DNA of 56,767 nucleotides from a virus (Duplodnaviria; Caudoviricetes). Of this stretch, positions 2,123 to 56,767 are shown piece by piece. The DNA lies in the IMG/VR virus record IMGVR_UViG_3300036717_000095, positions 1 to 56,767 of that record. One strand, written 5' to 3'. The translations under genes and the position numbers were made by a program. Position 1 is the first letter of the stretch. Each line of letters begins with the position of its first letter. The notes below the pieces were generated by a model. That model saw nothing but the letters and a program-made list of their open reading frames with translations, was not told where the DNA came from and did not search any database.

Positions 2123-2155
2123 AATGAGACCGAGCACGCGGAGGATCGGGAGACA

Positions 2156-2326: not shown

Positions 2327-2357
2327 CTTCATGCTTGTATAGAAGTGGCGCAACAAA

Positions 2358-2400: not shown

Positions 2401-2432
2401 ATTGACAACTTTCTTGTATCGAAATGTAGCAG

Positions 2433-2473
2433 CCCACCGCTGGTTCGTCCGAGGGGACGGCGGTGGGGTTTTT
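2433..2473. terminator. second GC-rich hairpin/terminator
   Basis: CCCACCGCTG...GTCC-GAGG-GGAC...GGCGGTGGG followed by GTTTTT; abuts the stop of the 730-aa gene. Confidence 0.55.
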
Positions 2474-6641: not shown

Positions 6642-6644
6642 CTT

Positions 6645-7031: not shown

Positions 7032-7035
7032 GTTT

Positions 7036-7653: not shown

Positions 7654-7657
7654 GAAA

Positions 7658-25759: not shown

Positions 25760-26268
25760 TAGTTGGCTCCTGTAACTATGAATGTGCAGTTCTTACTCGT
25801 GAAGCCAGCAGGAATAGATCCAGAGCTTTTCGGGCAAGCCAGCGTCCCTGTCAACGTGTGGCCAACAGGAGACCACGGAGGGCCTTGGATTCCCTGCTGG
25901 CCTTGAGGTCCTGTGTTGCCTTGCACTCCTTGACTTCCTTGAATTCCTTGAGAACCATTGGTTCCGTTCTGACCAGGAATGCCTTGGATACCCTGCGGGC
26001 CGGTCAAAGAGTGATACGAGCCTCCGTTGTCGCTTTCCTGCAGCATTCCATTCACGATGGTCAAGAGGTACTGACCACTGGTTGGAGGAGTTACTGGTTT
26101 TCCTATGTCGAGAAATACCCATCCGGATTGATTTCCGTTTGGAGCCGCAGTGACGGTAATGGGTCCCGCACAGATCGTCCCCGGAGGGGGACTCGCTTGG
26201 GAACATTGCCCGAGAGCCAGAGTGCTGAATAGCAGAATTGTGCTCAAAACAGGTACGATCGTACTCAT
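25759..26268 (-). CDS. secreted-type protein with collagen Gly-X-Y repeat
   Basis: Signal-like [20 protein letters not shown]|QC; [42 protein letters not shown]; Cys pairs at both ends. Confidence 0.8.
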
Positions 26269-32200: not shown

Positions 32201-34280
32201 AACTAGATTCGTAAGTTAGATGGTAGGAACTGGTGCCTAGAACGTTATTGACGATGTTCCAATACCGGCTATGAGAAGCGAGGTTTATTGGGAGCGTCTG
32301 CAAAGTACAAGGAACCGACACACAAGTCGAGTCAACACCATTGTAGTAATTCCGGAAGTCGGTCCCGAAGTTATGGGTACCGTGAATTGTGTCGGTTTCC
32401 TGTCCGGAAGCAATGTTTCCCTCGTGCAGGTTGTAGCAATTTCCAGCGTCATGGGAGATGGTTGTGGGTATGAGCCAGTACGAGAGCGGCGGGGAGTAGA
32501 AATCCCACAGCCCGAAGTTGTAGGAAAACACGTTGCCGCAGGTTGTTCCTTCGAGGTGCGGGGCGGCGATCTGCTGAAAAATGTTATTGTCGAACCGATT
32601 GTCGCTGGCCGCTACCCAAGGCTCGATGCCGTAACTCTCAGACAGACCGTGTTGAGTTTGATAGAAGTAATCACTTTCGACGAGATTGTGGGCCGAGTAT
32701 TGCAGCCAAATATGATCTCGGAGACCATGAGCAGAGGCAACACCTGTCACCCAGTTTCCAACCGCATTGATGATCCCCATACCACCAACAGGTGGGTTGC
32801 AAGGAAAGCCGTATTGGAAGCAATTCAGAACGTAGCTGTAATCGATCCCGAAGTTCTCAATGCCGACACCTTGAATGGTGGAAGCGGCCCAATACGCTCC
32901 GGGGTTTTGTCCCGTCCTCCAGTTCGGCATGTACAGACCTGGGGAAATGACAACAGAAGTGCTACCGCCACCAGCCGTGCAGGATGTACCCGGTGTGGTG
33001 ATTGTTCCACACTGGGTTACTTGGACCATCTGGGCTTGATTACGATCGGGATATTTTCCGTTCGCGCATACGTTGGATGTGCCTGCAACTGTACCGGGGT
33101 AAATTCCGACATTACGTCCGGGGGCTGTACTTGCGGCAGAATTGTCGTTAGCAAAGTAAGTAGGCGCACCAAAAGGAACGCCACAGCTTCCTGTGTTATT
33201 CGTGGTGTCTGCAACCAGAACCGGTGTAGGTATGTTGGGGTAATCCCAGACATCGTTCTCTTGGTCCAAAATGATCCACTGGCCGACAGACAGGTTGGAG
33301 ACAGAACCCAATGTGATCGCCGTGGCCCCTTGAGTGTAGCCGCTTGTCCATGTCGTTGTGAAACTATGAACGCCGTCTCCTGCGTTTCCAATCCACTGTT
33401 CCGCACCTTGTACGCAGAAAGCCACAGATGTGATACAGGAGGAGACGGGGCCAACCGGGTAGAGAGTGGTTCCCGAACCACTCGCCCCACGGAAGGTAAA
33501 GTTACTGACGTTGATAGATATCCCGGTCGTATAGAAAGTACCGGCTGCGATGTTGACAACGCAATGCGATGCGGCGGCAACAGCGGCATTGATAGCAGCG
33601 CCGTTTGCTGTACCGCTCACAGCTTGAACAGTTCCTGCCGGGCCAACAGACGGCCAGGTTTTAGTGCCGCCAAGAGTGTAAGTGAAGGTCTCAGGTCCGA
33701 CCGTGGCGATTAACCACGCGCCGTCATAGCTTTGATTGGTGACGGTAGCCCCTGTTACAGAGGTGACCGCTGTTGGAAAGAAGTTCACCTGCGTACCGCT
33801 GATAAATGGAGCCACAATCGTGGTCGTTAGAGCAGCCCCACCGACACCCGCACCGGCAATCGTGATCGGATCGCCTATCATTGAGGAGTTGAAAACGGAG
33901 GTACTGCTGGTCAGAAGACCGCTGTTCGAAATTACGTTTACTGCTCCGGTAACCGTGAGTGGTGTGTTGACACCCGAGATCAACACATACTCTCCCACCG
34001 TCAGGTGAGGGGTAAGAGGGGAAGACGTGTTTCCGGTGACGGTGCTGCCGCTCACTGAGATCGAGCTTAGGTTGATAGAGGAGTCGGGAGCAATCAACGT
34101 TGGCTGGGTAGCGCAGGCGTTGTTGCGAACCGTTGGCAATACCCCAGCGGTCGGCCAGGCATCGGTAGCCCGTGCTGGCGCAAGCAACCCCCCATAGAGT
34201 GGCCCGCCAGAAGGGTGGACTTGGGGCTGGACGCGCCCGCAAAAGGCCAGTGCGAGAATGAGAACAAAAAATCGTTTCAT
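26268..34280 (-). CDS. giant (2670 aa) Cys-rich parallel beta-helix (pectin-lyase-like/tailspike-like) protein with signal peptide
   Basis: [19 protein letters not shown]|Q; [12 protein letters not shown]...VNIAAGTFY...[11 protein letters not shown] beta-helix cap; Asn-ladder segments ([22 protein letters not shown]); many Cys pairs. Confidence 0.75.
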
Positions 34281-34293
34281 AGGCAACAAGAAT

Positions 34294-35379
34294 TTAACTT
34301 TGGGTGAAAGCAATACCACTTACAGTGAGACGGTCGGTGACGTGGGTTAACCAGTAAGGCGCGTAAAAATTATTTGAACCGCTAGCGCAAGTGAAAGACA
34401 CTGCGTACCCGTACCCAGGAGCACCGCTAGCAACAGGGGCGGGTGTAATTCCACTCCAGCACCCAGCGGCGGATGTACTGTTCCCGAGGTAGGCCGTACC
34501 TCCTGTGGTCGTTCCTAGATTCGACACCGAGCTGAATGAAAACGTGGAAGAACTGGTTGTAGCTACAGAGAACACGCCGTTGTATCCCGTGTTGCCGCTC
34601 ATAGTTACAGTGTTCGATCCAATTGGAGGGTTCAGGGAACTACTGCACACAACTGTGTAGGGACTGCTACTACCGCTGGTAAAACAGGTGGTTACAGCAT
34701 CGCTAACTGGACCAAGACCGGAGCTTGCCCCACCAGTAGGATAACTTAAGGTTGAGATGCTTTCAATAACAGCATCGTTAGAGCTAGAAAGGGTCAGCCC
34801 TGCTCCCAGACACGGGTTTGAAGTGACTCCACAGCTTGCATTGCTGTTATTGGATACCGCTACTGTGTCTAAACTGAAAGGCCCGGTGCCTAGTAGCTCC
34901 ATCGCTATCACATGCCATGTCGCACCAGGGGCGGTAGCAGGAGCGATGGTAACTGTGATGCCGCCGCTGCTAGAGATGGCGGATAGGGAGCCCCCTAAGT
35001 TATATCCGCAATCGCTACTTTGCAAACCTGGACTCGTGCCTTGGTTAATATAGCAGCCAGCGAAGGTATTGGTGCATCCTGCACTGCAATAGTAGCCGGA
35101 ATTGCTGGCCGCATCGGTGATGCTGCTGATCGAATAGCCGGACGTATTGACAGATGCAGATACATACAGCATGTTGTTACTACCGGCTAATGTATTCGAC
35201 GGGAACTTGACCGTGCAGGTTGTGCTGCTCGAAGAGCAGTTTTGAACCGCAGACTGGCGAACAGTGAAGCTGGAGGCTCCAACCGGAGCCGGAGGCGCTG
35301 GGAAAGGAATAATAGCCTGCTCGAAACCGCAGAACAGACCTACAGTGAGAAGCAGCGAAAGGGCAACGATCGGCTTCAT
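34294..35379 (-). CDS. secreted-type Ser/Gly/Thr/Cys-rich fibre-like protein (361 aa)
   Basis: MKPIVALSLLLTVGLFCGFE|Q; TVRQSA..CSSS..TCTV.F..NT.AG beta-sandwich-like pattern. Confidence 0.7.
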   Translation of the reverse strand: MKPIVALSLLLTVGLFCGFEQAIIPFPAPPAPVGASSFTVRQSAVQNCSSSSTTCTVKFPSNTLAGSNNMLYVSASVNTSGYSISSITDAASNSGYYCSAGCTNTFAGCYINQGTSPGLQSSDCGYNLGGSLSAISSSGGITVTIAPATAPGATWHVIAMELLGTGPFSLDTVAVSNNSNASCGVTSNPCLGAGLTLSSSNDAVIESISTLSYPTGGASSGLGPVSDAVTTCFTSGSSSPYTVVCSSSLNPPIGSNTVTMSGNTGYNGVFSVATTSSSTFSFSSVSNLGTTTGGTAYLGNSTSAAGCWSGITPAPVASGAPGYGYAVSFTCASGSNNFYAPYWLTHVTDRLTVSGIAFTQS

Positions 35380-43720: not shown

Positions 43721-43798
43721 TGGTAGCGGGGGTTGGATTCGAACCAACGTAAGTCGGTTTATGAGACCGGTGCTGGGACCACTCCAGTCTACCCCGCA
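43721..43798 (-). tRNA. tRNA-Met(CAT), initiator-like acceptor end
   Basis: TGCGGGG...CCCCGCT-A-CCA, anticodon loop CT-CAT-AA, T arm GTTGG-TTCGAAT-CCAAC, encoded CCA. Confidence 0.9.
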
Positions 43799-44573: not shown

Positions 44574-44837
44574 TTACGACCTCCCCCTCTTGGTACTCTT
44601 CTTTGGCGGTCTGTTCCAGTTGATACTCGCTTCTTTGGTGGTCTGTTCCAGGATGGCGGGGTCGATGTCATACCAGCCAGTCAGACGGTGTAAAAGATAC
44701 CCAACCGTAGTTCCTTCCATAACTTCGGTTGAATGGACTTCCCAGCCTTCTTTCGCCAGGTCGTTTATGCTATGGATCAGGTTACTCGGTACGGGGATAT
44801 ATTCGTACACCGGGTAGGACGTGCGTTTGGTCAGCAT
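44574..44837 (-). CDS. hypothetical protein (DUF4177-like), probably leaderless
   Basis: YEY......INDLAKEGWEV pattern; ATG 6 nt downstream of a -10 box. Confidence 0.6.
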   Translation of the reverse strand: MLTKRTSYPVYEYIPVPSNLIHSINDLAKEGWEVHSTEVMEGTTVGYLLHRLTGWYDIDPAILEQTTKEASINWNRPPKKSTKRGRS

Positions 44838-44843
44838 GAGAAA

Positions 44844-44872
44844 AGTATACAAGACAGACCGTATAGTGTCAA
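44844..44872 (-). promoter_or_regulatory. sigma70-type promoter for the leftward operon
   Basis: TTGACA-17 nt-TATACT on the minus strand. Confidence 0.8.
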
Positions 44873-45093
44873 GTACCTTTTTTCCACAGACTCTTGAGGG
44901 GGTATCACCCGGCAACTTTCACCGGGCTCGCGGCCTGGTCAGGGGTTGGGCGGCACCCTCGCGACCCAAAAAAGCAAAGGGGACCCATCCGGAAGAAAAC
45001 AAAGGGAAGAGGGACAAGAAAATACTTACCCTAATACCTATACCACTGAGAATAAAGTAGTTAACGCCGGATGGATACCGTTCTGATACCGTT

Positions 45094-45159
45094 TTACTTG
45101 CCCTTTTGCTTGCCGTTCGCCTTTTGCTTTTGTTTCGCTTTTGCTTTTTGTTCGCTCAT
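45094..45159 (-). CDS. 21-aa Lys/Gln-rich micropeptide MSEQKAKAKQKQKANGKQKGK
   Basis: Strong SD AGGGAGG 8 nt upstream of the ATG; explains the CTTTTG-like repeats on the + strand. Confidence 0.5.
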   Translation of the reverse strand: MSEQKAKAKQKQKANGKQKGK

Positions 45160-45262
45160 ATGGTTTTCCTCCCTTTCAAATTTTACTTTCGCCAAGTAAC
45201 CTGTGGAAAACTTTGTGCTTTCGTCTGTCAAGTATAATCACTGCAATGCCTTACGATTTTAC

Positions 45263-45291
45263 TTGACAATGTTCTAGTATTTCGGCATACT
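45263..45291 (+). promoter_or_regulatory. sigma70-type promoter for the rightward early operon
   Basis: TTGACA-17 nt-CATACT. Confidence 0.7.
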
Positions 45292-45328
45292 GTCCTCGCT
45301 GTTAAATCCTAGAGCTGAGGCAACGCTA

Positions 45329-45553
45329 ATGACACTCACCAAACCCAAGCGCCGTATCCACGCGGTAGCTGCGAATCTCCATTCCCTATCCCATTCTAAC
45401 AGACGGTGGTTAATCATAGCCATGCTATTGTTCGGCATTGGGCTATGGTTACATGGTGAGCATGGTACGGTAGCTGCGACTATGCTGGCGTTACGGGACC
45501 GCATACTAGACGCACTGGGGGACGTATTCATGGATAGGGGGATAAACTCATGA
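45329..45553 (+). CDS. small membrane protein (74 aa)
   Basis: SD GAGG; WLIIAMLLFGIGLWL helix. Confidence 0.6.
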   Translation: MTLTKPKRRIHAVAANLHSLSHSNRRWLIIAMLLFGIGLWLHGEHGTVAATMLALRDRILDALGDVFMDRGINS

Positions 45554-45654
45554 ACTGGTCACGCGAAAGCATTATTGACTGCATTCTGTTCGGATGCGCC
45601 ACTGTCGTACTAGCCTTAGCAGAACTGTTCGCTTGGGCCGGATGGATTCTCTAG
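45550..45654 (+). CDS. 34-aa membrane peptide (not in ORF track)
   Basis: MNWSRESIIDCILFGCATVVLALAELFAWAGWIL*; ATGA coupling, SD GGGGG. Confidence 0.55.
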   Translation: MNWSRESIIDCILFGCATVVLALAELFAWAGWIL

Positions 45655-45725
45655 TTAGGACATTAGCAAGCCCTTAAAGTCTTGGCTTGCTATTAGCTCA
45701 ACTAGAGCCTTGGGGGGAATACAAG

Positions 45726-46040
45726 ATGCTATACGAGATTATGACCGAAGATACAGGACGGGAAAACATCACCCGCGCTCTGGATGCCAGTTTCCCAGGA
45801 TACACGCTCATTCCGACTATCGGGCGCTGGGAAGGAGTAACGGAGCCGTCCATCATGGCGCAGATTGAAACGGACAACGGTCAGGCTGTGAGGCAATGCG
45901 CTGAACAGATTAGGGAAGCGAACAAGCAACAGGCTGTATTAGTCGAAGCGATTCCCAGCTCAAGCGAATTGGTAACCGACCCAAACATGGGAACGGGTAG
46001 CATGGTTACAGGGAAGCACGGGAATGGTTTGATTCGCTGA
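45726..46040 (+). CDS. early protein, possibly SAM lyase-like (T3 0.3-type ferredoxin fold)
   Basis: GYT.....G.WEG..E.S....I......AEQI...NKQQAVLV pattern; first soluble gene of the early operon. Confidence 0.4.
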   Translation: MLYEIMTEDTGRENITRALDASFPGYTLIPTIGRWEGVTEPSIMAQIETDNGQAVRQCAEQIREANKQQAVLVEAIPSSSELVTDPNMGTGSMVTGKHGNGLIR

Positions 46041-46164
46041 ATAAATCCGGCATGCCCGCGCTAGTTCTGAATCCGAACGTCTGGCAATTCAATGCCAGCA
46101 CGGGCGAGTATTCGTAAACAGTTGTGAAAAATCGGGTGGCGACCTACGCCAAGAGGTAACGCTA

Positions 46165-46515
46165 ATGACACTCGCAAAAGTAGTACGTAAGGGAAGCTAT
46201 CAAGGTGTACCGCAATGGGGGATTAGTACCGGGGCGGAGATCACGCCAAGCAAGGCAACGGCGGAAAAATGGGCAAGAGCTGAAAATGCCGTGATCGGGC
46301 GAAGCAAGAAAGCCAAACCAACGACCGCAAAACTCAATCAGGTGAACGTAGTGCAAGGTGAACACAAATGCAAGTTGCACAATTACGAGCACTTCTACGT
46401 GCGCCACACTTGCGGACATGAGTTCTGCCCTCAGTCTTGGCTGTATTGCCCACGTTGCCACGGTAGTCACGAAGGTAACCGCATAGGTCCAATCGGACGT
46501 AGTGCCAGCGAGTAA
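46165..46515 (+). CDS. hypothetical protein with Cys/His Zn-binding C-terminus
   Basis: CKLH..EH, CGHEFC, CPRCH; SD GAGGT. Confidence 0.65.
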   Translation: MTLAKVVRKGSYQGVPQWGISTGAEITPSKATAEKWARAENAVIGRSKKAKPTTAKLNQVNVVQGEHKCKLHNYEHFYVRHTCGHEFCPQSWLYCPRCHGSHEGNRIGPIGRSASE

Positions 46516-46556
46516 GTGTATACAGTTCAACGGTACGAACAAGGAGAACACCACAA

Positions 46557-46784
46557 ATGGTTTACGTTCAATACTTCCACAAAGGGATAGTAACTGGTAA
46601 CGACATTCCAGCATGCGGAGACCGCGCGGTAGTCACATTGGACGGCCGCCAAACAATCACAACATGGCATCGCGATGCGGTCTCATTCAACGGCATGCGG
46701 AGACCGATGTATACCGCGTACCAGATTATGCGCGGTGAATCGTTCACACGTTCCACACCTATTAGTCCGATAGTCCGATTGTAA
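46557..46784 (+). CDS. hypothetical protein (75 aa)
   Basis: SD AAGGAG. Confidence 0.7.
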   Translation: MVYVQYFHKGIVTGNDIPACGDRAVVTLDGRQTITTWHRDAVSFNGMRRPMYTAYQIMRGESFTRSTPISPIVRL

Positions 46785-46851
46785 CCTCAGGTTTAGTACT
46801 GGCAGGCCCTTTTGGCTTGCCATTAGTAAATCTAGTTGGAGGGTAACGGTT

Positions 46852-47061
46852 ATGGCTGAAACGGTTGCAAACACTGATTTTGCAGTACAGGACGAAGGCT
46901 CAATCTACTTGCTGCATCCTCTAACTGAGGCGGCAGAAGAGTGGATTGCCGAACACATTCCGAGCGATGCTCAATACTTGGGCAAGGCGGTTGCTGTCGA
47001 GCATAGATACATCGGCGGTATTGTCGAGGGTATCAAAGCCGATGGTCTCACGGTCGGTTAA
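46852..47061 (+). CDS. hypothetical protein (69 aa)
   Basis: SD GGAGG. Confidence 0.7.
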   Translation: MAETVANTDFAVQDEGSIYLLHPLTEAAEEWIAEHIPSDAQYLGKAVAVEHRYIGGIVEGIKADGLTVG

Positions 47062-47116
47062 CCGGACGGCTTGCCATGAGTAACACTGGAGGGTTGAGTA
47101 AATGAATCTGTTGGCT

Positions 47117-47669
47117 TGACATGACATCTAACACAGGTGTCATGTCCGGCTAACCGGACGGAAATACGGAAATGAGGTAACAAAAATGAAAAGGAAAATA
47201 TCCACATTGGAACTATGGTACGACGATGAGACCGAGAACGTTTCGCGTCTCGAAGGAGAATCTCGCGACGGTAAGATGCCTGACCTATTCCGGTTGGTTT
47301 TGAATCCGGCTTACGATCACCTGCATGCAGAGGGTACCCGCAACAAAAAAGCCGTATTCGCTTCCATCTTGGCGCATGAGGTTGGACACTGGATTGCGAT
47401 GTTAATGGGCAGCAAGTGGCAGATTCCCTTTATGCGACAGTTATCGGCACTTCCGAGCGAAAAAGAAGCTTGGAGTCTGGCGCATTATGTCAACCCTAAC
47501 ATCAACCGCGAGGTTGAGATCGAATGCTTGAAGTCCTATGAGGACAAAAGTATTCCTGAATACGCGCAAAAAGCTATCGATGCGGTGTTCGAGGAAACGA
47601 AGATTGCTTGAATCCGGTTGCTGTGACATGACATCTAACTTATGTGTCATGTCCGGCTAACCGGACGGA
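47117..47669 (+). repeat. 46-bp near-identical direct repeats flanking one gene
   Basis: TGACATGACATCTAAC-N4-GTGTCATGTCCGGCTAACCGGACGGA at 47117-47162 and 47624-47669. Confidence 0.9.
47186..47611 (+). CDS. HExxH zinc-metallopeptidase-like protein
   Basis: ILAHEVGHW ... SEKEAW (third ligand Glu). Confidence 0.6.
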   Translation: MKRKISTLELWYDDETENVSRLEGESRDGKMPDLFRLVLNPAYDHLHAEGTRNKKAVFASILAHEVGHWIAMLMGSKWQIPFMRQLSALPSEKEAWSLAHYVNPNINREVEIECLKSYEDKSIPEYAQKAIDAVFEETKIA

Positions 47670-47681
47670 CTGGAGGACGTT

Positions 47682-47888
47682 ATGGAATACGGCGGCTTTG
47701 ATGTGTTTGTGAGAACGTGGTGGAAACTCAATCCTTCATGGCCGAATGGCCTTGAGCCTTGTCCCGGTCAACGGCGTTACATTGCCAAAGGCGTTACCGA
47801 AGAACGAGCAAGAGAGATCTGCAAGGCTTACAACACCACGCATGACTCAGGCAAGTTGAGCAAGAAAGCGGAGTACGAAAGTGCATAA
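47682..47888 (+). CDS. hypothetical protein (68 aa)
   Basis: SD GGAGG. Confidence 0.7.
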   Translation: MEYGGFDVFVRTWWKLNPSWPNGLEPCPGQRRYIAKGVTEERAREICKAYNTTHDSGKLSKKAEYESA

Positions 47889-47940
47889 ACCGGGCATGGT
47901 CCCGGTCTGCCGATATTGTCGGCACTGAAAGAGGACCATT

Positions 47941-48285
47941 ATGATGGACATCGGAACCATTCGGGAAATGAGCCGTAATGCGGCTATCGATGCGGCTGTG
48001 AGACACAGGAAACCCTTGATTGTCGAGGCCGAAGACATCGAAGCACTCAAGGCGGGCAAGCACTTGCCCATTCCTTTTCTTGGGGATTATGTCCCGAAGG
48101 GATGGAAGCGAACCGACCGCGAGGTCATGTTCGTTGACTCTAGCGGTTTTGGAGCAACGGGCGAACCGGCGATGACGCTGAATAGCTTTTTCGATTCGCT
48201 CATACCAGGCAAAGGCTATGCGACTGTCGAGCAAGGACAGTTTCAGGTCTATGTCGCTGAATACGAAAAAGTCAAAGCGGCCTAA
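47941..48285 (+). CDS. hypothetical protein (114 aa)
   Basis: SD GAGGA; FVDSSGFG...EPA and GQFQVYV motifs. Confidence 0.7.
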   Translation: MMDIGTIREMSRNAAIDAAVRHRKPLIVEAEDIEALKAGKHLPIPFLGDYVPKGWKRTDREVMFVDSSGFGATGEPAMTLNSFFDSLIPGKGYATVEQGQFQVYVAEYEKVKAA

Positions 48286-48359
48286 AGTTGGGACACTGGG
48301 GAGTGCTTGCACTCCCGAATGATTCAACTTTAAGAATCAAAGGAGACTGGAGGTACCTT

Positions 48360-49250
48360 ATGAACTATCAAAGCGCGAATGAAAAGCTTACCGGGCGATG
48401 TCATGATTCCCGAAAACTTTGCAACAACACCTATCTGCGGCGTGATTACTCGCACCGCAACGGGGAGAACGATCTTGCTGTCCGGTTGCATTCCACCGAT
48501 GTGGTGGTATTCCATCCAAATGGCAGTGTAACCCTCAATACGGGTGGATATAACACTGTTACCACGAAAGACACGATCAATTGCTATTCGCCCTGTCGTG
48601 TATGGTCAGAGCGAGGTCAGATGTTCGTGGGAGTGAATGGGAAAAGCTATCCGTTTGACCGAACGGTGACTGTCGATGCCAAAGGCAAGATCCGCGGCGC
48701 ACTAGATGCGGAAAAGATCAAAGCGCAATTTCGCGAATTTGACCGGGAAGCTGCCAGAGTTTCAAGGTGGCTGTCCAAGGCGCGGGGTCTCAAGGTGACC
48801 ACGCATTGCGGCAAAGGATGGGAATGCTATACACGTTCGGTGTTCGGACGACGCAGGCGCGACTTGCCCTTGCAGCCAGGAACGTATGAATGCGGCTGTG
48901 TTGTCGAGCGGCTCCCTGTTCGGACAAAGCTCACAGTGGAAAAGATCATGGCCGAACCGAATATCACCGTTCGCATGGCGATGGTCCATTGCTATGGCCT
49001 TGAGCGATTTTTGCTAGATGCCAAAGCGAAGACTCTTGATACTGTGGGTGAGTATCAATTGCTGGACATGCCTTTGGGCGAAGTCAGCGGTTGGAGGTCT
49101 CGAACCATCAGGGCGCTCAAGATGACGTGTCCGAGCACTGGAGCTGTCTACATTTCACCGGTAGAACCGCGTCTCGGAACGGTGTCCGAGGCGTTAGATT
49201 GGATGTACGACACAGAGGACTATCTGGCGAACATCGGTCAACAAACCTAG
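48360..49250 (+). CDS. protein with C-terminal DUF6745-like domain
   Basis: N.TVRM..V..YGLERF ... KMTCPSTG.VY..PV.P...TV.EAL.W; start moved to ATG 48360 (SD GGAGGT). Confidence 0.7.
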   Translation: MNYQSANEKLTGRCHDSRKLCNNTYLRRDYSHRNGENDLAVRLHSTDVVVFHPNGSVTLNTGGYNTVTTKDTINCYSPCRVWSERGQMFVGVNGKSYPFDRTVTVDAKGKIRGALDAEKIKAQFREFDREAARVSRWLSKARGLKVTTHCGKGWECYTRSVFGRRRRDLPLQPGTYECGCVVERLPVRTKLTVEKIMAEPNITVRMAMVHCYGLERFLLDAKAKTLDTVGEYQLLDMPLGEVSGWRSRTIRALKMTCPSTGAVYISPVEPRLGTVSEALDWMYDTEDYLANIGQQT

Positions 49251-49309
49251 ATGGGACATTAGCGGCATCGCAGTGCCGCTATTGATTCGACTAGAATCAA
49301 GGAGACCTT

Positions 49310-49636
49310 ATGAAAACAAAACCTGTAAGACAGGGGGACATTCTTTTTGTCCCTACTGAGGACACGATTAACCCAGTCAAGAAACTGGAGGACGGGGTGA
49401 TTGCCGAAGGCGAAGCGACCGGTCACCGGCACCGCATCTTCGAAGCGGACTTGCCATTCTGCGAACTAGTCGAGGTGGACTATCGCGGCAGTAAGATGCT
49501 CAAGGTCACGGATCACGGAATCTCGATTGTCCACGATGAGCACAAACCGGTCACGCTGGAACCGGGCACTTACCGAATCCACCAGGCGAGGGAGCACGAT
49601 TACCTCGCCGGACTGTCCCGGCCTGTATGGGACTAA
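49310..49636 (+). CDS. conserved RQGD/His-rich protein (usual partner of DUF6745 genes)
   Basis: RQGDILF, AEGEATGHRH, HDEH..VTL.PGTY....RE.D. Confidence 0.75.
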   Translation: MKTKPVRQGDILFVPTEDTINPVKKLEDGVIAEGEATGHRHRIFEADLPFCELVEVDYRGSKMLKVTDHGISIVHDEHKPVTLEPGTYRIHQAREHDYLAGLSRPVWD

Positions 49637-49715
49637 GTGCGACTTTAGCGGGTTAGGAATCATCTAACTCGCTATGGATGCGCTTTAACACAGAGTGCAG
49701 CTATTGGAGGGAAAG

Positions 49716-50075
49716 ATGGAAAAGAAATTAGATCCCGAAACGTTAAGAGGTTTCATCGGCACGGAGAACTGGTATAAGCATGGCTTAGTGCCGTCGATCA
49801 CCTATACCGATGGTGTGAAGTACGTGGCTGAAAATGGTGGGGCCTATTGGCTTTTGGATGAAATTGCCCTTGCCAATGGTTTTGACCCGAAAGTCAAAGC
49901 ACAATGGTTTCAGGTTTGGAAGTTGACCGCTTCAGATAGAAGCGGTGCTCTGACGTGCGAAGACGGTAACGGTAACCGTGTTCTTTACAAGCGGATAGAC
50001 TTCACTGACTTCCCATTGCCGGAAATTACTATCTGGTTCACGGATGGGGTAATGCTCCTACCTAGCGAGTATTAA
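49716..50075 (+). CDS. DUF6876-like protein
   Basis: F.GTE.WY.H, YTDGVKYVAE..GAYWL.D.I, FQVWKL, EDGNGN, I.FTDFPL, LLPSEY. Confidence 0.75.
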   Translation: MEKKLDPETLRGFIGTENWYKHGLVPSITYTDGVKYVAENGGAYWLLDEIALANGFDPKVKAQWFQVWKLTASDRSGALTCEDGNGNRVLYKRIDFTDFPLPEITIWFTDGVMLLPSEY

Positions 50076-50129
50076 GGTAGAGTATTGCCTTAGTAACAGA
50101 ACAGGAATTTAACCGATAGGAGGTTAAAA

Positions 50130-50675
50130 ATGACCCAAAATTATGCGGGACTAGATTACAGTTTCGGGAAGGCTAATTTCAATCCTGAGACCGGCATCCA
50201 CTTCGGTGTGATTTCACAGAATTCGATCATGCCGGAAGCGATGGAGGACGTGGAATACGATTACGGCAAACCGACCTGCGGCAAGTGCGGTGGCTCTGCG
50301 ATTGAGTCGGGCGAACTTCCGGCAGAGTTCGAGGATGCCGAATGGAACGAAGGCAAGGATTATGCTTGCGTTACTTGCAAGCGGTGTTTCTGGAGCGATA
50401 CCGCATTCCCGGATATGGCAATCGGTTGGAGCTACGGCAAGGACGGCTACAATCTGACCGACTGTCTCACCAATGATGTGTTTGTTCTGGATTCGCCGTT
50501 CTATACCCGAGCACAGTATTGCTCACCTTGCGTACCAGGGGCGGGCAATCTGGATAATCCCTGCGAGGACGGGCCTAAGACTTACTGTCTCGGGCACGAT
50601 TGGTTTGAAGGCGGCAAGGCACCTTACCAGGTATTCAAGGTTGCTGACGATACCGAGGTTGTCGAGCAGGTGTGA
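50130..50675 (+). CDS. Cys-rich hypothetical protein (181 aa)
   Basis: CGKC, CVTC, CSPCVPGAGNL; SD AGGAGG. Confidence 0.75.
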   Translation: MTQNYAGLDYSFGKANFNPETGIHFGVISQNSIMPEAMEDVEYDYGKPTCGKCGGSAIESGELPAEFEDAEWNEGKDYACVTCKRCFWSDTAFPDMAIGWSYGKDGYNLTDCLTNDVFVLDSPFYTRAQYCSPCVPGAGNLDNPCEDGPKTYCLGHDWFEGGKAPYQVFKVADDTEVVEQV

Positions 50676-50744
50676 CATTAGCGGGTGATACGTCACTCGC
50701 TATCGATGCAATCTACCGATTACTGGCATCAGAGGGAGCGGTTT

Positions 50745-51371
50745 ATGAAAAACAAGATTCAGATTCCCGAATGGGAAGGCACCAAGCACACAGTGATTGG
50801 CGACCGCATTGTTTTTGTGCGAGTGGAACAGGATTCGATGCGCGAAAACCCCTGTCATGACGACGGGATGGGTCAGATTCGTTCGCTGTCGCGCAAGCAC
50901 ATCGACAACATCGATTGCGAATATGCTGTCGAGTTGCTCAAGAATGACCCGGATGTTGTCGCGCTGTCCTATTTTGAGCACGGACAATCGCTGTGGATGG
51001 TGCAAGGTTCGCCAGCTCCAGCGGGTGTCGAGTTCCAATGGGACGGACGGGAGTTTGCAGGTGTGTGGATTCCAGACGATTGCGTCCGGGAGTCCTATAC
51101 AGGACAGGGTGGTTTGTCTCGCCGGGAGTGGATGGTGAAACAAGCCAAAAGCTGCTGCGATGTCTACACGAAGTGGGCAAACGGCGACTGCTGGGGGTAT
51201 GATATTCAGGTGTTCAAGATCCGCAAGGACGATGACGGCGAGGTCTACGATGTTTTGGATGATTATCGCCGAAACAAAGCTGTCGATGAAGACTCATGCT
51301 TCGGTTTCATCGGTCACGATCACTTGGTTGAAGAGCTGGAAGCAGCGGTAGCGAACATGACGAAAGAATAG
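50745..51371 (+). CDS. acidic hypothetical protein (208 aa)
   Basis: Y..WANGDCWGY...DSCFGF.G motif; start moved to ATG 50745. Confidence 0.7.
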   Translation: MKNKIQIPEWEGTKHTVIGDRIVFVRVEQDSMRENPCHDDGMGQIRSLSRKHIDNIDCEYAVELLKNDPDVVALSYFEHGQSLWMVQGSPAPAGVEFQWDGREFAGVWIPDDCVRESYTGQGGLSRREWMVKQAKSCCDVYTKWANGDCWGYDIQVFKIRKDDDGEVYDVLDDYRRNKAVDEDSCFGFIGHDHLVEELEAAVANMTKE

Positions 51372-51435
51372 CCAAACGAAGCACGAGTTCACGCCCAAGA
51401 AGCACTACCCCAACGTTTGTCAGCAGTGCGGTGGG

Positions 51436-51735
51436 ATGCGAATTACGCCAGAGCACGGGTACGACATGGCAGCGGAAGCCGAGGATAAAATGAAGGATAA
51501 AAAGATTGTCGAAGAGGTGTACTGCGGCACTCGCCTTTGCTTGACCGAGAAGCAAAAACAAGAACTAGAAGCATACCGGAAACTAGGGCGGTCTAAACGG
51601 GCGAAGGTGCGGAAAGCGGGAACCAAGCTGTTTGGTTTTCGGTCCCTAAATGAGGCGGAATGGCTTGCCTTGAAATATCCCGAGGTGCCGAAGATCGTCC
51701 GGGACGCAATGCTGGAGGAGGTAAAAAAGAGATGA
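51436..51735 (+). CDS. basic hypothetical protein
   Basis: ORF in operon orientation; start uncertain. Confidence 0.5.
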   Translation: MRITPEHGYDMAAEAEDKMKDKKIVEEVYCGTRLCLTEKQKQELEAYRKLGRSKRAKVRKAGTKLFGFRSLNEAEWLALKYPEVPKIVRDAMLEEVKKR

Positions 51736-51772
51736 TCGAACCAAAGACGAGGCGAAACGGGAGGGGTGAAAA

Positions 51773-52138
51773 ATGAACTACCTGAAAAAATCCTATACCG
51801 AGGCAGACCGGAACCGTTTGCTGCTCACGATCAGAACCCAGACTCGGGTTGCCAATGTGCCGGTCTGCGATTTTTGCGCCGACCCGGATATTAAGTTTAT
51901 CTATGCGTCCGATGTCACAAGCTCCGGCGTTACCGAGCGGTGCTGGCGCTGGACTGTCTGCGCCGAGTGCGATGCCTTGATTGAGGCGAAGGATTGGTAT
52001 TTGCTCAAGGCGCGAATCCGGGATTCCTTGAGCAAGATATTGAAAAAACTAGTATCCGACAAAATAGTCACTCAAGCCGTCGAACACTCGTTTGCGACTT
52101 TTACCCCAGTTGCGGAAAGGAGAAGACCCTTGTCGTAG
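51773..52138 (+). CDS. Zn-finger protein (CDFC...CAEC)
   Basis: PVCDFC, WTVCAEC..LIE..DW; SD GGAGG. Confidence 0.7.
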   Translation: MNYLKKSYTEADRNRLLLTIRTQTRVANVPVCDFCADPDIKFIYASDVTSSGVTERCWRWTVCAECDALIEAKDWYLLKARIRDSLSKILKKLVSDKIVTQAVEHSFATFTPVAERRRPLS

Positions 52139-52201
52139 CACTAAAAACCGCTATTGCGGGCGCTCCCAGAACTAGGGTAATATACCAAGCAAGGAGGTCT
52201 T

Positions 52202-52924
52202 ATGGAGACACAAGAGCCACAAAAAGAGTTGGAGATCTTGGAACAAACCACAAAAAAAGGAAAACAGGTCGAACCCGTCTCGACTGCCGACATTGCTAAA
52301 CGGGGAGGCTTTTACCATTGCACGGATAGATTGCCGAATGGGAAAAGATGTAAAGCGAAGTTCACGGAGCGTCGTTTCCTCGGTAGACATCGTACCACGC
52401 ATGGCGTCCTTGGTACGGGGTCTTCATCTGTGAAGAAGCGAGGAAAAAAACAGCGGGAACAAACACAGCGGGAACAAACACCACAATCAATAACTGTGTA
52501 CAGGACGAACGGAAGCTACCCATGTCCTGTGCCAGACTGCGTTTTCGATAGTGCAAGTTCCTTCGGTGTGAAGACTCACCTCAGAAGCAAACACCGAATC
52601 CTGCAAGTGATCCTCGGAAAAAAATCTGACCAAGAAGGAGAAAACAATGGCGGCATCGATAGCAGTCCAACCACGCGACTCGTCAAAGCCAAAAAAAACG
52701 GAAAAGGAAACCCGTGGTCTCCAGAAGCCCTTTCCGGTTTCTTATATGCCCACCTCGACACTCACCTTGAAAATGCAAGCCAAGGGGACCCGAGCACTAG
52801 AGCGCATATTTCCCACCGGCTCACTGAGTTTCTTTCCCATTCGGTATTACGGAGTGGATTACAGGACCGGGAAGGATCGGTTCGGAACGCCGAACATCTG
52901 TCCCCAATGTTTCGCGAGACCTGA
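52202..52924 (+). CDS. protein with two C2H2-type zinc fingers
   Basis: C.......C...F.....LGRHRTTH and CPVPDC.F......V..HLRSKH; SD AGGAGG. Confidence 0.7.
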   Translation: METQEPQKELEILEQTTKKGKQVEPVSTADIAKRGGFYHCTDRLPNGKRCKAKFTERRFLGRHRTTHGVLGTGSSSVKKRGKKQREQTQREQTPQSITVYRTNGSYPCPVPDCVFDSASSFGVKTHLRSKHRILQVILGKKSDQEGENNGGIDSSPTTRLVKAKKNGKGNPWSPEALSGFLYAHLDTHLENASQGDPSTRAHISHRLTEFLSHSVLRSGLQDREGSVRNAEHLSPMFRET

Positions 52925-53018
52925 CCAGGGAGTGCCGCAACATCTACGTGCAAAGTGGATCACCTTTCATTACGTGGTCCAGCATGGTGGCGGTCGGAGA
53001 GTTCGTTTAATTCAATAA
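52647..53018 (+). CDS. overlapping out-of-frame ORF (123 aa) with CPQC...H....H
   Basis: Good SD AAGGAG 6 nt before ATG 52647; overlaps the previous ORF by 278 nt. Confidence 0.4.
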   Translation: MAASIAVQPRDSSKPKKTEKETRGLQKPFPVSYMPTSTLTLKMQAKGTRALERIFPTGSLSFFPIRYYGVDYRTGKDRFGTPNICPQCFARPDQGVPQHLRAKWITFHYVVQHGGGRRVRLIQ

Positions 53019-53183
53019 AGACCGTTGTGCGGGGTGGACTTGTGCGGGGCTGAGATCGATAACCAGATCCTCGGTTGCTGGTGCAAACCACGGCCTTGCC
53101 ATGGGGACGTGTTGATTAGGCTCAGAAAGGAACAGCTCAAAAACGAAGGCCCTGCATTCGTAGTCTTCGGACGGTGCTAAAAA

Positions 53184-53744
53184 ATGATGCCCAAAACTCG
53201 TCGGTGGGTCGTTTCGGATAGTCACTTGGGGCACTCTTCCCCGACGTTTCAGGCGCACACCCGCCGACCGAAGAATGTGGACGAGATATTCACCAAGGCG
53301 TGCAAACGCCTGATCGGTCCCGATGATCTCGTGATCCATGTGGGAGACGTATGCTTCAACTTCTTCGACCTCAAGGCATGGTTTGCTGACATGCCGGGGC
53401 GCTGGGTACTGGTGCGCGGCAATCACGACAGTCGCAGCCTTAGTTGGTACATGAGCCACGGCTTTGCATTCGCTTGCGAAGCGCTAGAACTTGGCGGGGT
53501 GTATTTCACGCACAAACCATCGGAGACCTTACCGAAGGGCTGTCAGTGGAACGTGCATGGTCACCTGCACAACCGTGTGCCGACCGACTTCAAGAAATAT
53601 CCGCACTGCAAACTCTTCGCCTTGGAACACAGCAAGTATGAACCGATGCTGCTCGACAAGTTCCTGCGTAAAGGTTGCCCTGGTGGTATTACCGTGCCTA
53701 CCGAGGAAGACCTAACAGAGATGAGCGAGGTGGATCATCCGTGA
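53184..53744 (+). CDS. calcineurin-like metallophosphoesterase
   Basis: SDSHLGH, HVGDV, RGNHD, FTH.P, NVHGHLH. Confidence 0.9.
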   Translation: MMPKTRRWVVSDSHLGHSSPTFQAHTRRPKNVDEIFTKACKRLIGPDDLVIHVGDVCFNFFDLKAWFADMPGRWVLVRGNHDSRSLSWYMSHGFAFACEALELGGVYFTHKPSETLPKGCQWNVHGHLHNRVPTDFKKYPHCKLFALEHSKYEPMLLDKFLRKGCPGGITVPTEEDLTEMSEVDHP

Positions 53745-54358
53745 AAACTCCTCTACAGATTCGTGAAAACCGATGCGTAAGGTGCGGTGCTCCTATCTCG
53801 ATGCACTCTTCTTTCTCGCTTTGCAAAACATGCCGAAGGCTTTTCTGGTCCAAACACGGGGTGCCCATGATCGAATTTCGTAGCGGCGATATTCTGAAGG
53901 ATGAATCGGAGGCACTCGTCAACCCAGTGAATTGCGTCGGTATCATGGGTCGCGGCCTTGCCTTACAGTTCAAGGACACTTATCCCGACAACTTCAAATT
54001 CTATGCAGCAGCTTGCCAGCGCAATGAAGTCCAGCCGGGGCGAATGCTGGTGTTCGAAACAGGAAAGCTCTCGCCGCCACACTACATCATTAACTTTCCA
54101 ACCAAGCGACACTGGCGAGACAAGAGCCGGATCGAGGATATCCAGGGTGGGTTGAAGACGTTGGTGGAAGAGGTTCTGGCCCGTGGTATTTGGTCAATTG
54201 CTATTCCATCGCTGGGGAGCGGATTAGGTGGACTCGATTGGGCGACCGTCAGACCGCATATCGAGGACGCGGCAAAAATACTTGCCGATGTTTGCGTTTG
54301 CGTGGTAGTTTACGAACCGAAAATGCCGGGAGTAAAGCAGCAATCGATAGTGAAATAA
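53741..54358 (+). CDS. macrodomain protein, DarG-like, with optional N-terminal Zn ribbon
   Basis: GDIL....EALVNPVNCVGIMGRGLALQFK, IINFPTKRHWR..S.IE.I, SIAIP.LG.GLGGLDW; GTG start overlapping the upstream stop; alternative ATG 53867. Confidence 0.85.
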   Translation: MKTPLQIRENRCVRCGAPISMHSSFSLCKTCRRLFWSKHGVPMIEFRSGDILKDESEALVNPVNCVGIMGRGLALQFKDTYPDNFKFYAAACQRNEVQPGRMLVFETGKLSPPHYIINFPTKRHWRDKSRIEDIQGGLKTLVEEVLARGIWSIAIPSLGSGLGGLDWATVRPHIEDAAKILADVCVCVVVYEPKMPGVKQQSIVK

Positions 54359-54467
54359 TTTCGCTATTATGCCACTTTATATGAGTGAAAATAAAATTTC
54401 TCAGTTGTTGGGTAGTGTCCTAAACTTGCGTTGAAGAAAACAGCAGTCGGTAACTGGAAAAACGGCC

Positions 54468-54698
54468 TCAGCCTTGACGACGCTTACGCACATTTGGAAG
54501 ATGTTTTTGAGGCACTTCTGGAATAACGTAGTCGCCCTCAGTTCTCCAACGAATACGGCCTCGCAGTGCCGCGTTCCTGACACGTTCAGGCAAGCATATC
54601 TTGCAAAACGGGTTCTCTTGGTACTCAAGCCCCGTGCACGTCATCTCTCGCCCACAGTAACGGCAGCGTCGAATCCTAGCCAAAATCATCTCTGCCAT
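54468..54698 (-). CDS. small Zn-finger protein (CRYC...CKIC)
   Basis: RRCRYCGREM....Y.ENPFCKICL.ER. Confidence 0.6.
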   Translation of the reverse strand: MAEMILARIRRCRYCGREMTCTGLEYQENPFCKICLPERVRNAALRGRIRWRTEGDYVIPEVPQKHLPNVRKRRQG

Positions 54699-55121
54699 GG
54701 CGGCAAGATTAGGACACTACCCAGTTGTTGTACTTTGCCTTCCCCTTGCGAACCACTCGATACTGCGGCGCACCGAGCCGCTGTACCTGGCGCTCAAGGA
54801 TGTCAATCCTCTCGCCCAGTTCGGTTCCGAGTTTGCACGAGCCAGCGAGCGTGATCCGTGAGCAGTTGGGTGTGGTCGGGATCGTGTGTTGAGGCCAATT
54901 TGAGTGCATCCTTGACCTGCCGTTGCAGCTTCCAGAAGCCCCTCGTTTCCCCTAGCCAAAACGTTAGTTTTTCGGTTGTTTGCGGGTCAGTCAAATTCAG
55001 TCGTCCCAGCCTTGATATGTCATGTCGAAGCCCTCCCGTTTCAGCGTTGTATTATGCCGCTTAAACTCCAAGCTGCTTAATACGCTTCTCGGTCGCTTTG
55101 CTTTTGCCATAGTAAACTTTT

Positions 55122-55343
55122 TTACGGAGTCGTGAGTCCCAACATCGCAGCCACTGATTCCTTGGCGGCTGCGGTTTTATTCTTCGTTCTCTTCCTGTAC
55201 TGCCGTGGTATCTCCGAGATCAAAAGTTCCACGAGTTGCCGGGTGGCTTCCAGCCTGGTATCGGCGGGCAGGTTTTCGCTTGCCTTGTCTGCGGCGATCT
55301 CAATCAATACTTTCTTCAGCCGTTGCCTTGTGTTAACGGGCAT
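55122..55343 (-). CDS. hypothetical basic helical protein (73 aa)
   Basis: Amphipathic helices, basic tail. Confidence 0.5.
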   Translation of the reverse strand: MPVNTRQRLKKVLIEIAADKASENLPADTRLEATRQLVELLISEIPRQYRKRTKNKTAAAKESVAAMLGLTTP

Positions 55344-55767
55344 AATTTAGGGCGGGTGCGGGGATGGGGGCAAGCGGGGGCCTTTGCATCCCCGCATGGT
55401 TAGAAGAGGAACGTAACTACTTTCCATGCTCCGTGCGCGGTTTTCACCGGGTGGACCACGGGATAGGACACGACCTTGGCGGTACGCTTCACAACATGGC
55501 CGACAACATGAGCCGGAGCAGCCGAGGCGAAACCGCACAAGATCAGCGAGAGAAAGAGTGCAGAGAGCTTTTTCATTGGAGTCCTTTTGTACCGGTTTTA
55601 GCAAAATTTTCACATGGCCAAGATAATTAACATGGCCAAGTCCAATGTCAATCTCTTTTAAGCGAGAGCGATTCTTTTTTAGGGAAGAGCACGGTGACCG
55701 TGCTCCTCCTAGCGATTGGTTACTTGTCTTTAGCGATCAGCAAGAGCCAGCAATCGCGCTGGGAAAA

Positions 55768-55989
55768 CTAGTCTTTGCGGTTTGGTTGAACCGTGCCATG
55801 ATGCTGTTTCGCTTTCACGGCGGCACTTTCAGTAACCTTGTCCACGTCCTTGGACGTTCCAACATACACGTTGGGGTGTAACCCACGGCTCATGCCTAAA
55901 CCTTCGCGTTTAAGGATGTCTTCCCAGTAGGCAGGATCGGTTCTGGATGTGTCTATTGTTTCAGGTGGAACGGGTGTTAATCTTTTCAT
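55768..55989 (-). CDS. hypothetical protein (73 aa)
   Basis: Follows the HTH gene after a 7-nt gap. Confidence 0.55.
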   Translation of the reverse strand: MKRLTPVPPETIDTSRTDPAYWEDILKREGLGMSRGLHPNVYVGTSKDVDKVTESAAVKAKQHHGTVQPNRKD

Positions 55990-55996
55990 GGGCCAG

Positions 55997-56305
55997 TTAG
56001 CATGTCCCTGGTACTATTGGCAAAGATACCCTCTTTTTAGACAACCTATCTAGCACCATTTCAACGGCTTTCAAGGTTTCCCCTAGTTCGTCTGCGATCT
56101 CTTGGGCGGACTGGTTGTTGCACCAATACAAGATGGCGATGGTGGATTGACGCACCTCTCTGTCACCGCATACATGGTTTAGGATGGTAGAAGGTTTAAT
56201 AGCCCAACTTGGACGGTTCTTCCGAGCGTTGGTGAGTTTAATAGGGGGCGGCGGAACGGCTGTGATCTCTGCGTAATGTTCGGCAACATCTTGATTTTGA
56301 AACAT
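55997..56305 (-). CDS. sigma70 region-4-like HTH protein
   Basis: RQ..IA.LYW....SAQEIADELG.T.KAV...L.R; SD AGGAGG. Confidence 0.7.
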   Translation of the reverse strand: MFQNQDVAEHYAEITAVPPPPIKLTNARKNRPSWAIKPSTILNHVCGDREVRQSTIAILYWCNNQSAQEIADELGETLKAVEMVLDRLSKKRVSLPIVPGTC

Positions 56306-56353
56306 GGTTTCCTCCTGTCTGCGCTCAAACTCTTTTGGATAGTTCCCTAATTT

Positions 56354-56397
56354 ATTATACTAGACTATTGACACGATGTCACATTCTTGGGTAGAAT
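56354..56397. promoter_or_regulatory. overlapping divergent sigma70 promoters with central palindrome
   Basis: + strand TTGACA(56368)-18-TAGAAT(56392); - strand GTGACA(56382)-17-TATAAT(56359); TGACA-cga-TGTCA dyad. Confidence 0.7.
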
Positions 56398-56483
56398 TGT
56401 TTTTTAGGAACAGTTAAAATCAGGGCGGCGATTGACGTTCTACACCGCGAAGAGTCGGGCGATTGCAGGAGGGCACTACATAA

Positions 56484-56767
56484 ATGAAATACGAAGGAAA
56501 AGTTACCGAGCAGGCGAAAACCGTGTACGCCAGAGGTTGCACCTCGCTCACCGAACTGAAGGCCGAGCAGGCGAAAACCGTGTACGCCAGAGGTTGCACC
56601 TCGCTCACCGAACTGAAGGCCGAGCAGGCGGAAACCGTGGACGCCAGCGGTTGCACCTCGCTCACCGAACTGAAGGCCGAGCAGGCGAAAACCGTGTACG
56701 CCAGCGGTTGCACCTCGCTCACCGAACTGAAGGCCGAGCAGGCGAAAACCGTGTACGCCAGCGGTTG
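56484..56767 (+). CDS. LRR-like 19-aa repeat protein (truncated by window end)
   Basis: MKYEGKVT then (EQAKTVYA[R/S]GCTSLTELKA)n; SD AGGAGG; missing from the ORF track because there is no stop. Confidence 0.8.
   Translation, partial: MKYEGKVTEQAKTVYARGCTSLTELKAEQAKTVYARGCTSLTELKAEQAETVDASGCTSLTELKAEQAKTVYASGCTSLTELKAEQAKTVYASG
56506..56767 (+). repeat. 57-bp coding tandem repeat, at least 4.6 copies
   Basis: Units start at 56506, 56563, 56620, 56677 and 56734 (CCGAGCAGGCG...). Confidence 0.95.

Follow-up and report, generated by a model that had tools for sequence, protein, structure and literature searches.

Intercistronic RNA hairpins in the early gene array of an uncultured peat phage: a covariation-supported family with a possible role in message processing

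Why does gap after gap in the early gene array of a phage hold a hairpin that begins at the stop codon of the preceding gene, and what might such hairpins do? The question is raised by IMGVR_UViG_3300036717_000095, a virus contig of 56,767 bp that was analyzed as the whole record (referred to here as the window), in which small genes are co-oriented on the + strand from about 45.3 kb to the contig end. The sequencing runs that contain this stretch are peat metagenomes. A first-pass annotation had described about ten related hairpins between these genes and had offered RNA switches, RNase III-like processing sites and single-stranded DNA recombination sites as candidate functions. When every gap is folded, long hairpins are found to start at or near the stop codon, in the places where that annotation had put them. 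Six of them, E1, E4, E8, E9, E10 and E12, make up a lineage-restricted RNA hairpin family that is supported by covariation and lies outside Rfam. These core elements are quite possibly signals, placed between cistrons, for the processing and stability of a polycistronic early mRNA, in which case they would be analogues, and not homologues, of the RNase III sites of phage T7.

Hairpins in the intergenic gaps

Each gap was folded from the upstream stop to the next start and compared with 200 dinucleotide shuffles of itself. Of the twelve gaps in 45654–50745, nine have a + strand that beats its shuffles (z −2.85 to −4.54), no more than one shuffle in 200 being equally stable. The gaps at 46041–46164 (z −1.1) and 46516–46556 (z −0.06), and the whole gap that holds E12 (z −0.2), are not more stable than their shuffles. 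A contig-wide scan of raw energy in 70-nt windows was dropped as evidence, many coding windows being equally stable. Since raw folding energy is unexceptional genome-wide, the case is built on shuffles, position, motif and covariation.

A covariance model (R1) was built from an alignment (A2) of six elements and run without filters on both contig strands. It returned the six core elements at 48–68 bits, followed by four of their reverse strands at 12.9–23.4 bits, and then noise. Similarly, a further model (R2) recovered these six and no others from the window, always on the + strand (45.6–58.3 bits), the next matches being their own reverse strands at no more than 18.9 bits. The hairpins of the array thus comprise one six-member family, one two-member family and at least two singletons, rather than the single family of about ten that had been proposed; the hairpins at 47110 and 47617 belong to a different repeat and the rest are unrelated.

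All six core elements lie on the + strand. E1 (45647–45712; R2 58.3 bits; folding energy −24.9 kcal/mol; z −2.97) carries the stop codon TAG (45652–45654) of the upstream gene in its 5' foot, at alignment column 8, and is followed by the next AUG at 45726. In E4 (46783–46842; 46.8 bits), z is −3.79 on the + strand versus −1.88 on the − strand. E8 (48280–48338; 45.6 bits; z −4.43) has the stop codon TAA (48283–48285) in its 5' foot, at column 6. Likewise, the 5' foot contains TAG (49248–49250) in E9 (49243–49301; 47.8 bits; z −4.19), which sits between genes for proteins of 296 and 108 aa, and TAA (49634–49636) in E10 (49629–49694; 53.3 bits; z −3.59). The lower stem of E12 (50662–50722; 46.0 bits) is weak, and its stop codon TGA (50673–50675) overlaps the pentamer GACAT (column 14). 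This pentamer had been put forward as a hallmark of the elements, and a GACAT-like sequence is present in five of the six, as GACAC in E8 and GACTT in E10; E4 has GTACT instead.

The motif, which was not recognized in the first-pass annotation, does not correspond to a described RNA family. Rfam 15, searched with the whole window at the gathering score, returned only a borderline tRNA elsewhere (43727–43796, − strand, 29.4 bits against a gathering score of 29), and the region 45200–51500 gave no Rfam match at E values up to 1.

Consensus structure, covariation and strand

Ten copies were aligned (alignment A3): the six of the window, three from G002, which is one of the two closest viral contigs retrieved, and one from L103, a metagenome fragment of 1,145 bp. 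The consensus comprises 23 pairs (columns 6–15/58–67, 17–18/55–56 and 20–30/43–53) that form a quasi-continuous helix of about two turns. Pairing is found in 86.1% of 216 cells, compared with 62.9% for shuffled partners (0 of 500 as high), and when the partners are slid by 1–3 columns only 28–42% are paired. These pair counts are flattered by the derivation of the structure from the very sequences that were scored, and several copies are paralogous, so there are fewer independent events than cells. Changes on both sides occur in 22 of the 23 pairs, with a covariation score of 0.615 versus 0.224, in agreement with the earlier remark that the stems diverge in sequence yet keep their pairing. The helix structure is under selection.

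Two positions within the helix are unpaired. Column 16/57 is purine-purine in all ten copies (A-A in six, G-G in E4), and column 19/54 is U-U in seven. The GACAT pentamer and the opposing TTGAT are the two strands of one irregular stretch of helix, and conservation of the primary sequence thus coincides with the irregular part of the helix, both stems having drifted. The position of the element relative to the genes is similarly regular: the stop codon starts at columns 6–8 in 7/10 copies, which makes its location in the 5' arm the usual one, as had been noted; the foot of the helix is 9–28 nt from the next AUG in 9/10 copies, and the ribosome-binding site (RBS) of the next gene is found 0–12 nt past the 3' foot of the element.

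The conservation of sequence at the irregular part of a helix whose stems drift is also what might be expected of an operator. The core elements would then be bound by a dedicated RNA-binding protein of phage or host, such as a translational repressor, a shut-off nuclease other than RNase III or an antiterminator, which recognizes the motif of purine-purine mismatch, two pairs and U-U mismatch within the helix. A lineage-specific partner would predict a single narrow phage lineage, as is observed, and the early proteins, nearly all of which have no known function, offer room for one. However, none of the early proteins that were scanned could be placed in an RNA-binding or nuclease family; for an antiterminator, six to ten sites in one operon are many; and the T7 RNase III sites likewise share sequence without a dedicated factor. 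On balance, an operator is unlikely.

The coding strand carries all ten copies. In a set of 14 hairpins, G-U pairs outnumber A-C single mismatches by 39 to 3 on the sense strand, whereas the corresponding counts for the antisense strand are 11 versus 10, and the sense fold is better by more than 3 kcal/mol in 10 of the 14. These observations give moderate support to the notion that the elements act as sense-RNA structures.

A stable, GC-containing hairpin right after a stop codon, with two alternative structures as in the usual anatomy of an attenuator (see below), could also be a terminator or attenuator without a U tract, or a pause site, that grades expression along the array. This is highly improbable. 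None of the elements has a T run or was called in a terminator scan, and none of the 18 terminator-like calls in 44800–56767 is at an element. The sole clear terminator-like hairpin of the contig, at 2358–2400, does have A and T runs. Moreover, at least nine terminators in 5 kb would silence the distal genes, and contigs from an RNA library cross E12 and E6, which is a weak argument since DNA carry-over is possible. The hairpin at 2358–2400 is a perfect one of 17 bp with the A and T runs on its flanks; it is located between convergent genes and resembles a two-way intrinsic terminator.

Likeness to T7 processing sites and the alternative fold

A sigma-70-like promoter sequence (TTGACA, 17 nt, CATACT; 45263–45291, + strand), which matches the consensus at 10/12 positions and is a consensus match only, precedes the first gene of the + strand array, and a divergent sigma-70-like site serves the − strand genes. 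All six core elements are found between co-oriented genes, 3' of this one promoter-like site and without a terminator call between them, and the array is probably transcribed as a single unit. That the array starting at 45.3 kb is early is deduced from the gene layout; the genes for the large terminase (22144–25149) and the portal protein (19561–21654) are both on the − strand.

This arrangement invites comparison with the early region of T7. According to two reviews (PMC3867540, PMC1540722), the polycistronic T7 precursor of about 7000 nt carries five RNase III signals, RNase III substrates typically span two helical turns, and loops or mismatches restrict the enzyme to one strand, leaving a protective 3' hairpin. 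The T7 early region was taken from NC_001604 and its early gaps were folded with the same tool as the window. In these folds the lower stem contains the stop codon, the helix is interrupted, the upper stem-loop varies between conserved flanks, and a conserved 3' strand leads to the RBS. RNase III sites are not annotated in the NC_001604 record; they are reported to lie in exactly the gaps that were folded here (Dunn and Studier 1983).

The elements of the window and the T7 sites thus share several properties. Each type of site occupies the gaps of an array of small, co-oriented early genes that is preceded by host-type promoters. Each folds into a hairpin of roughly two turns that is interrupted midway, with the stop codon of the upstream gene on the lower stem, a variable upper stem-loop, and a conserved 3' strand ahead of the RBS. 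The two-turn interrupted helix of the window elements, with its 23 pairs and two conserved 1x1 mismatches, is what an RNase III substrate is expected to look like. There is no sequence homology to the T7 sites, as the best match of R2 on T7 400–8000 has 9.4 bits (E 0.66), and the likeness is therefore one of design and not of descent. Among the functions that the first-pass annotation had listed, RNase III-like processing is the one that best fits the helix length, the interruptions and the layout of stop codon and RBS, with cleavage itself being predicted.

The structure of the elements, its conservation and covariation, and their strand and position are observed here; the following sequence of events, with its single transcript, its cut, the enzyme that makes it and what becomes of the pieces, is inferred. 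Host RNA polymerase would start a long polycistronic early transcript at the promoter at 45263–45291, in which the six core elements, and probably other hairpins of the array too, would act as sense-strand RNA structures. The cut, most likely by host RNase III, would fall on or close to the two conserved mismatches, in the manner of the T7 early mRNA. It would leave the variable upper stem-loop at the 3' end of the upstream message, as a hairpin that protects it, and the 3' strand thus released would pair with the sequence directly before the RBS to form a second hairpin, through which the downstream message would gain a 5' terminal hairpin.

Such a second hairpin can be drawn for most copies. 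In E9 it is found at 49282–49300 (+ strand), with 7 bp and a 5-nt loop, and it ends at the RBS; its counterparts are at 45696–45708 (E1), 48320–48339 (E8), 49675–49703 (E10) and 50705–50730 (E12). The 5-nt loop is often formed by the former 3' foot. Since the second hairpin consumes the 3' strand of the long hairpin, the two structures are mutually exclusive. When the sequence through the 3' end of the upper stem is removed, a hairpin of 4–8 bp opens the remaining RNA in 8/10 copies and ends at the RBS, which places it right where the presumed downstream product would begin. Single second hairpins are weak, 11–70 of 300 shuffles being as stable (z −0.7 to −1.8), and Fisher combination of the ten shuffle fractions yields p ~0.02. 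Five copies share one register of the second hairpin with one covarying pair, in which a T at the shared 3'-strand position has an A as its partner (E8 and E9) and a G has a C (E12, G002 copy a and L103). For E4 and for copy b of G002, no second hairpin is credible. The earlier claim that a second hairpin competing with the lower stem can form thus applies to E1, E8, E9, E10 and E12, and the predicted bistability is plausible and moderately supported.

Two exclusive folds next to a stop codon also suggest that the ribosome itself may be the actuator. A terminating ribosome would melt the long hairpin, the second hairpin would form by the RBS, and the translation or decay of the next gene would depend on the translation of the preceding one; an RNA switch that is refolded by ribosomes terminating upstream, and so couples translation, had been proposed in the first-pass annotation. 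A switch of this kind agrees with the fixed register of the stop codon in 7/10 copies, with the second hairpin that forms in 8/10 when the 5' strand is removed or blocked, with the partner covariation and with the combined probability of the ten copies. However, this covariation is limited to a single position with two states, the individual second hairpins are weak, and two copies are without a credible one. Furthermore, when the 5' part was blocked to mimic a terminating ribosome, the predicted unpaired probability of the RBS went up in E1 and E4 and down in E8, E9, E10 and E12, that is, accessibility rises in just two of the six core elements. The RBS is free in both states, so there is no simple on/off logic, and this counts against a switch. 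What stands of that proposal is the alternative hairpin in 8/10 copies, and not a general gain in RBS accessibility; as an account of the elements it is doubtful.

Doubtful to a like degree is a combined view in which the elements are a new class of mRNA punctuation with two states. Here the terminating ribosome, at its fixed-register stop codon, would pick between the long helix and the pair of short hairpins. A nuclease or binding protein dedicated to the long helix would recognize its purine-purine and U-U signature, the short hairpins would protect and insulate the neighboring messages, and the fate of each early message would be set by the translation of its upstream neighbor.

Several observations weigh against processing by RNase III as in T7, which nevertheless is the reading that we prefer. 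The run evidence consists of low-depth contigs throughout, the RNA part being four short contigs from one metatranscriptome run, and two of the RNA-run contigs run across E6 and E12, which means that uncut molecules or contaminating DNA exist. The T7 sites have an asymmetric internal loop, whereas the elements described here have two 1x1 mismatches and a competing second hairpin; cleavage here is predicted only. The conserved primary motif could signal a sequence-specific factor, R2 has no better match on T7 than the one given above, and the family is confined to a very narrow lineage. The structure behind the pair counts was drawn from those same ten copies. By z-score, the sense strand is the stronger one in just 6 of the 9 structured gaps, and the strand asymmetry is partly compositional, because the + strand is G-rich.

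Relatives, mosaicism and genomic setting

The closest viral contigs retrieved are G001 and G002, with terminases that are 83% identical to that of the window. Their early region is the reverse complement of G002:1–10,650. Compared with the window it is a mosaic, in which 5 of the 27 proteins of the window find a match. G002, which is also locus L165, contains three copies of the element, after homologues of the first, third and seventh genes, and three additional genes are found between its E1 counterpart and the shared next gene; the G001 record contains the first of these copies and then ends. The copy in L103 (399–464; R2 60.7 bits), which has the GACAT pentamer, occupies the junction that E9 occupies in the window, with a homologue of the 296-aa gene on one side and a homologue of the 108-aa gene on the other. 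In junction-matched copies (E9 and L103; E1 and G002:10532–10595), the upper stems are unrelated and the flanking motif is kept. A 106-nt gap of G002 (L165) at 7478–7598 (− strand) opens like the third copy (GGCATTGAGT) and continues with an insert of about 50 nt that has a hairpin of its own; it may be an expanded or decayed member of the family.

Elsewhere the family was not found. R2 gave no further match in 167 loci comprising 1.56 Mb. A profile search with the 296-aa gene yielded 80 viral, 1 genome and 80 metagenome loci, in none of which R1 with default filters had a match. Inspection by eye of 20 loci and 23 further flanks revealed the element in L103 alone, and a long hairpin without the motif in L082. 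No relative was obtained in a single-protein search of viral contigs with the 296-aa gene, whose closest homologues (58–61% identical) are from other assemblies only, and two other early proteins used as queries led only to G002 again and to two loci, 40% identical, without elements. An exact-pattern scan of viral contigs with a degenerate 17-nt motif gave six matches, none with a hairpin. Among public phage records, blastn had no match to 45000–52000, and with E1 alone only three 24-nt chance matches (E 8).

The mosaic relationship to G002 raises the possibility that the elements are boundaries of DNA modules, either as junctions for cassette exchange, like PeSL or attC sites, or as small mobile palindromes, and that their RNA structure is secondary. 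Besides the 5 of 27 proteins that are matched in the 11-kb early region of the relative and its three extra genes after the E1 copy, a contig from another sample keeps the gene at 46557–46784 and diverges at 46787, the 5' edge of E4, and hairpin repeats that are 89% identical flank the gene at 47186–47611. Breakpoints, however, commonly fall at gene borders in phages that have no such element. In each hairpin the feet covary with one another, a pattern that crossovers within an element would break, and the G-U versus A-C counts favor the transcribed strand.

The PeSLs of T4-type phages are similar to the present elements in being short conserved stem-loop motifs between small variable early genes in mosaic regions, and they have been reported as exchange points (PMC4122927). 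They differ from them in that PeSLs are composite terminator/promoter sequences, whereas the elements have no promoter or terminator consensus and contain no such calls; one weak promoter-like call (9/12) is in the gap of the unrelated hairpins E7. Furthermore, the feet of the hairpins covary here rather than form a shared recombination target.

In integrons, attC sites are imperfect palindromes that follow each gene of a co-oriented array, with structure conserved over sequence and with unpaired positions in the helix. In these respects, as attC is generally defined, the elements of the window resemble them. By inspection, however, their feet (..GTT / AAC..) have the reverse of the attC core-site order, and while the bottom strand is active in attC, the G-U counts (39:3 vs 11:10) favor the transcribed strand here. 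No integrase, HUH or other recombinase family was detected among 30 window proteins scanned (Pfam and/or PHROGs), which does not cover every open reading frame (ORF) of a contig that may be incomplete. The proposal of single-stranded DNA recombination sites is not supported, in view of the 30 proteins without a recombinase, the elements without a promoter call, the G-U bias of the sense strand and the covarying feet, and it is improbable that the elements are primarily DNA-level boundaries.

Another known system of this type is provided by the SAS and ESAS repeats of Cluster K mycobacteriophages, which are described as lineage-specific repeats in one orientation just before the start codons of a subset of genes (PMC3203893); they have been linked to translation starts and their function is unknown. 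Both ESAS and the present elements are imperfect inverted repeats with a variable spacer. The 17-bp arms of ESAS, however, are conserved in sequence and accompanied by a separate 13-bp start-site motif (PMC3203893), whereas in the present elements the arms covary as they drift, conservation is limited to the irregular middle of the helix, and the 5' foot is linked to the stop codon of the upstream gene.

The remaining hairpins of the array are of other kinds. E5b (47110–47162, + strand) is the first copy of a different 53-nt hairpin repeat (direct repeat family D1) with a perfect 9-bp core stem, and neither R1 nor R2 matched it at the thresholds applied. The second copy, E6 (47617–47669, + strand; z −4.54), is 89% identical to it and has an R2 score of 11.3 bits (E ~2). 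E5b is located upstream and E6 downstream of the gene at 47186–47611. The gaps at 47889–47940 and 50076–50129 carry short hairpins that are unrelated to the core family, neither of which is matched by a model: E7 (47889–47924, + strand; z −2.85) consists of two short hairpins directly after a stop codon TAA, and another hairpin (50070–50095, + strand; z −2.95) spans the stop codon TAA (50073–50075) of a DUF6876 gene.

Pieces of this part of the window also occur in contigs of other samples. In a contig of run X3, a 75-aa gene (46515–46787, + strand) is found in different surroundings, the likeness ending at the stop codon of the upstream gene and 3 nt beyond the stop codon of the 75-aa gene itself. 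A 5.9-kb contig of run X4, with a depth of 52, shares only a 128-nt piece of a 141-aa gene (47466–47593, + strand) with one difference, and it seems that a much more abundant phage carries a piece of this gene. Contigs from three other samples match the window only at 46164–46220, and both of their flanks differ. A joint of 50159 to 50638, with a side of 22 nt in one contig, was too weak to be used. The RBS, start codon and first codons of two genes (45317–45343 and 46153–46179, + strand) are 89% identical over 27 nt, and a third, partial copy of this repeat is at 47174–47189. At 56354–56397, near the contig end, there is an overlapping divergent pair of sigma-70-like sites, each matching 11/12 positions.

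In scans against Pfam and/or PHROGs, nearly all of the proteins of the array are without known function, apart from the DUF6876 protein and one that is weakly DUF6745-like. Within the structural block there is an ORF of 2683 aa (26268–34319, − strand), which had no sequence match in Pfam, PHROG or PDB. It may encode a giant virion protein or a virion RNA polymerase, the latter of which would make hairpin promoters a candidate. The large terminase subunit (22144–25149, − strand) has 1001 aa; over the first ~500 of these it matches other families of terminases and, less strongly, those of primases and helicase loaders.

If the core elements are indeed intercistronic processing signals, a peat phage without a cultured relative would have reached independently the solution of T7, in which a long early transcript is cut into stable single-gene messages, and would have done so with a different signal sequence and an extra alternative fold. 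Should the two mismatches instead be read by a dedicated factor or belong to a ribosome-dependent switch, a new link would emerge between the decay or use of a message and the translation of its neighbor. With the processing reading, the family would give an RNA motif that is supported by covariation and that Rfam lacks, a handle for the annotation of early operons in uncultured phages, and compact natural "insulator" parts for the building of operons.

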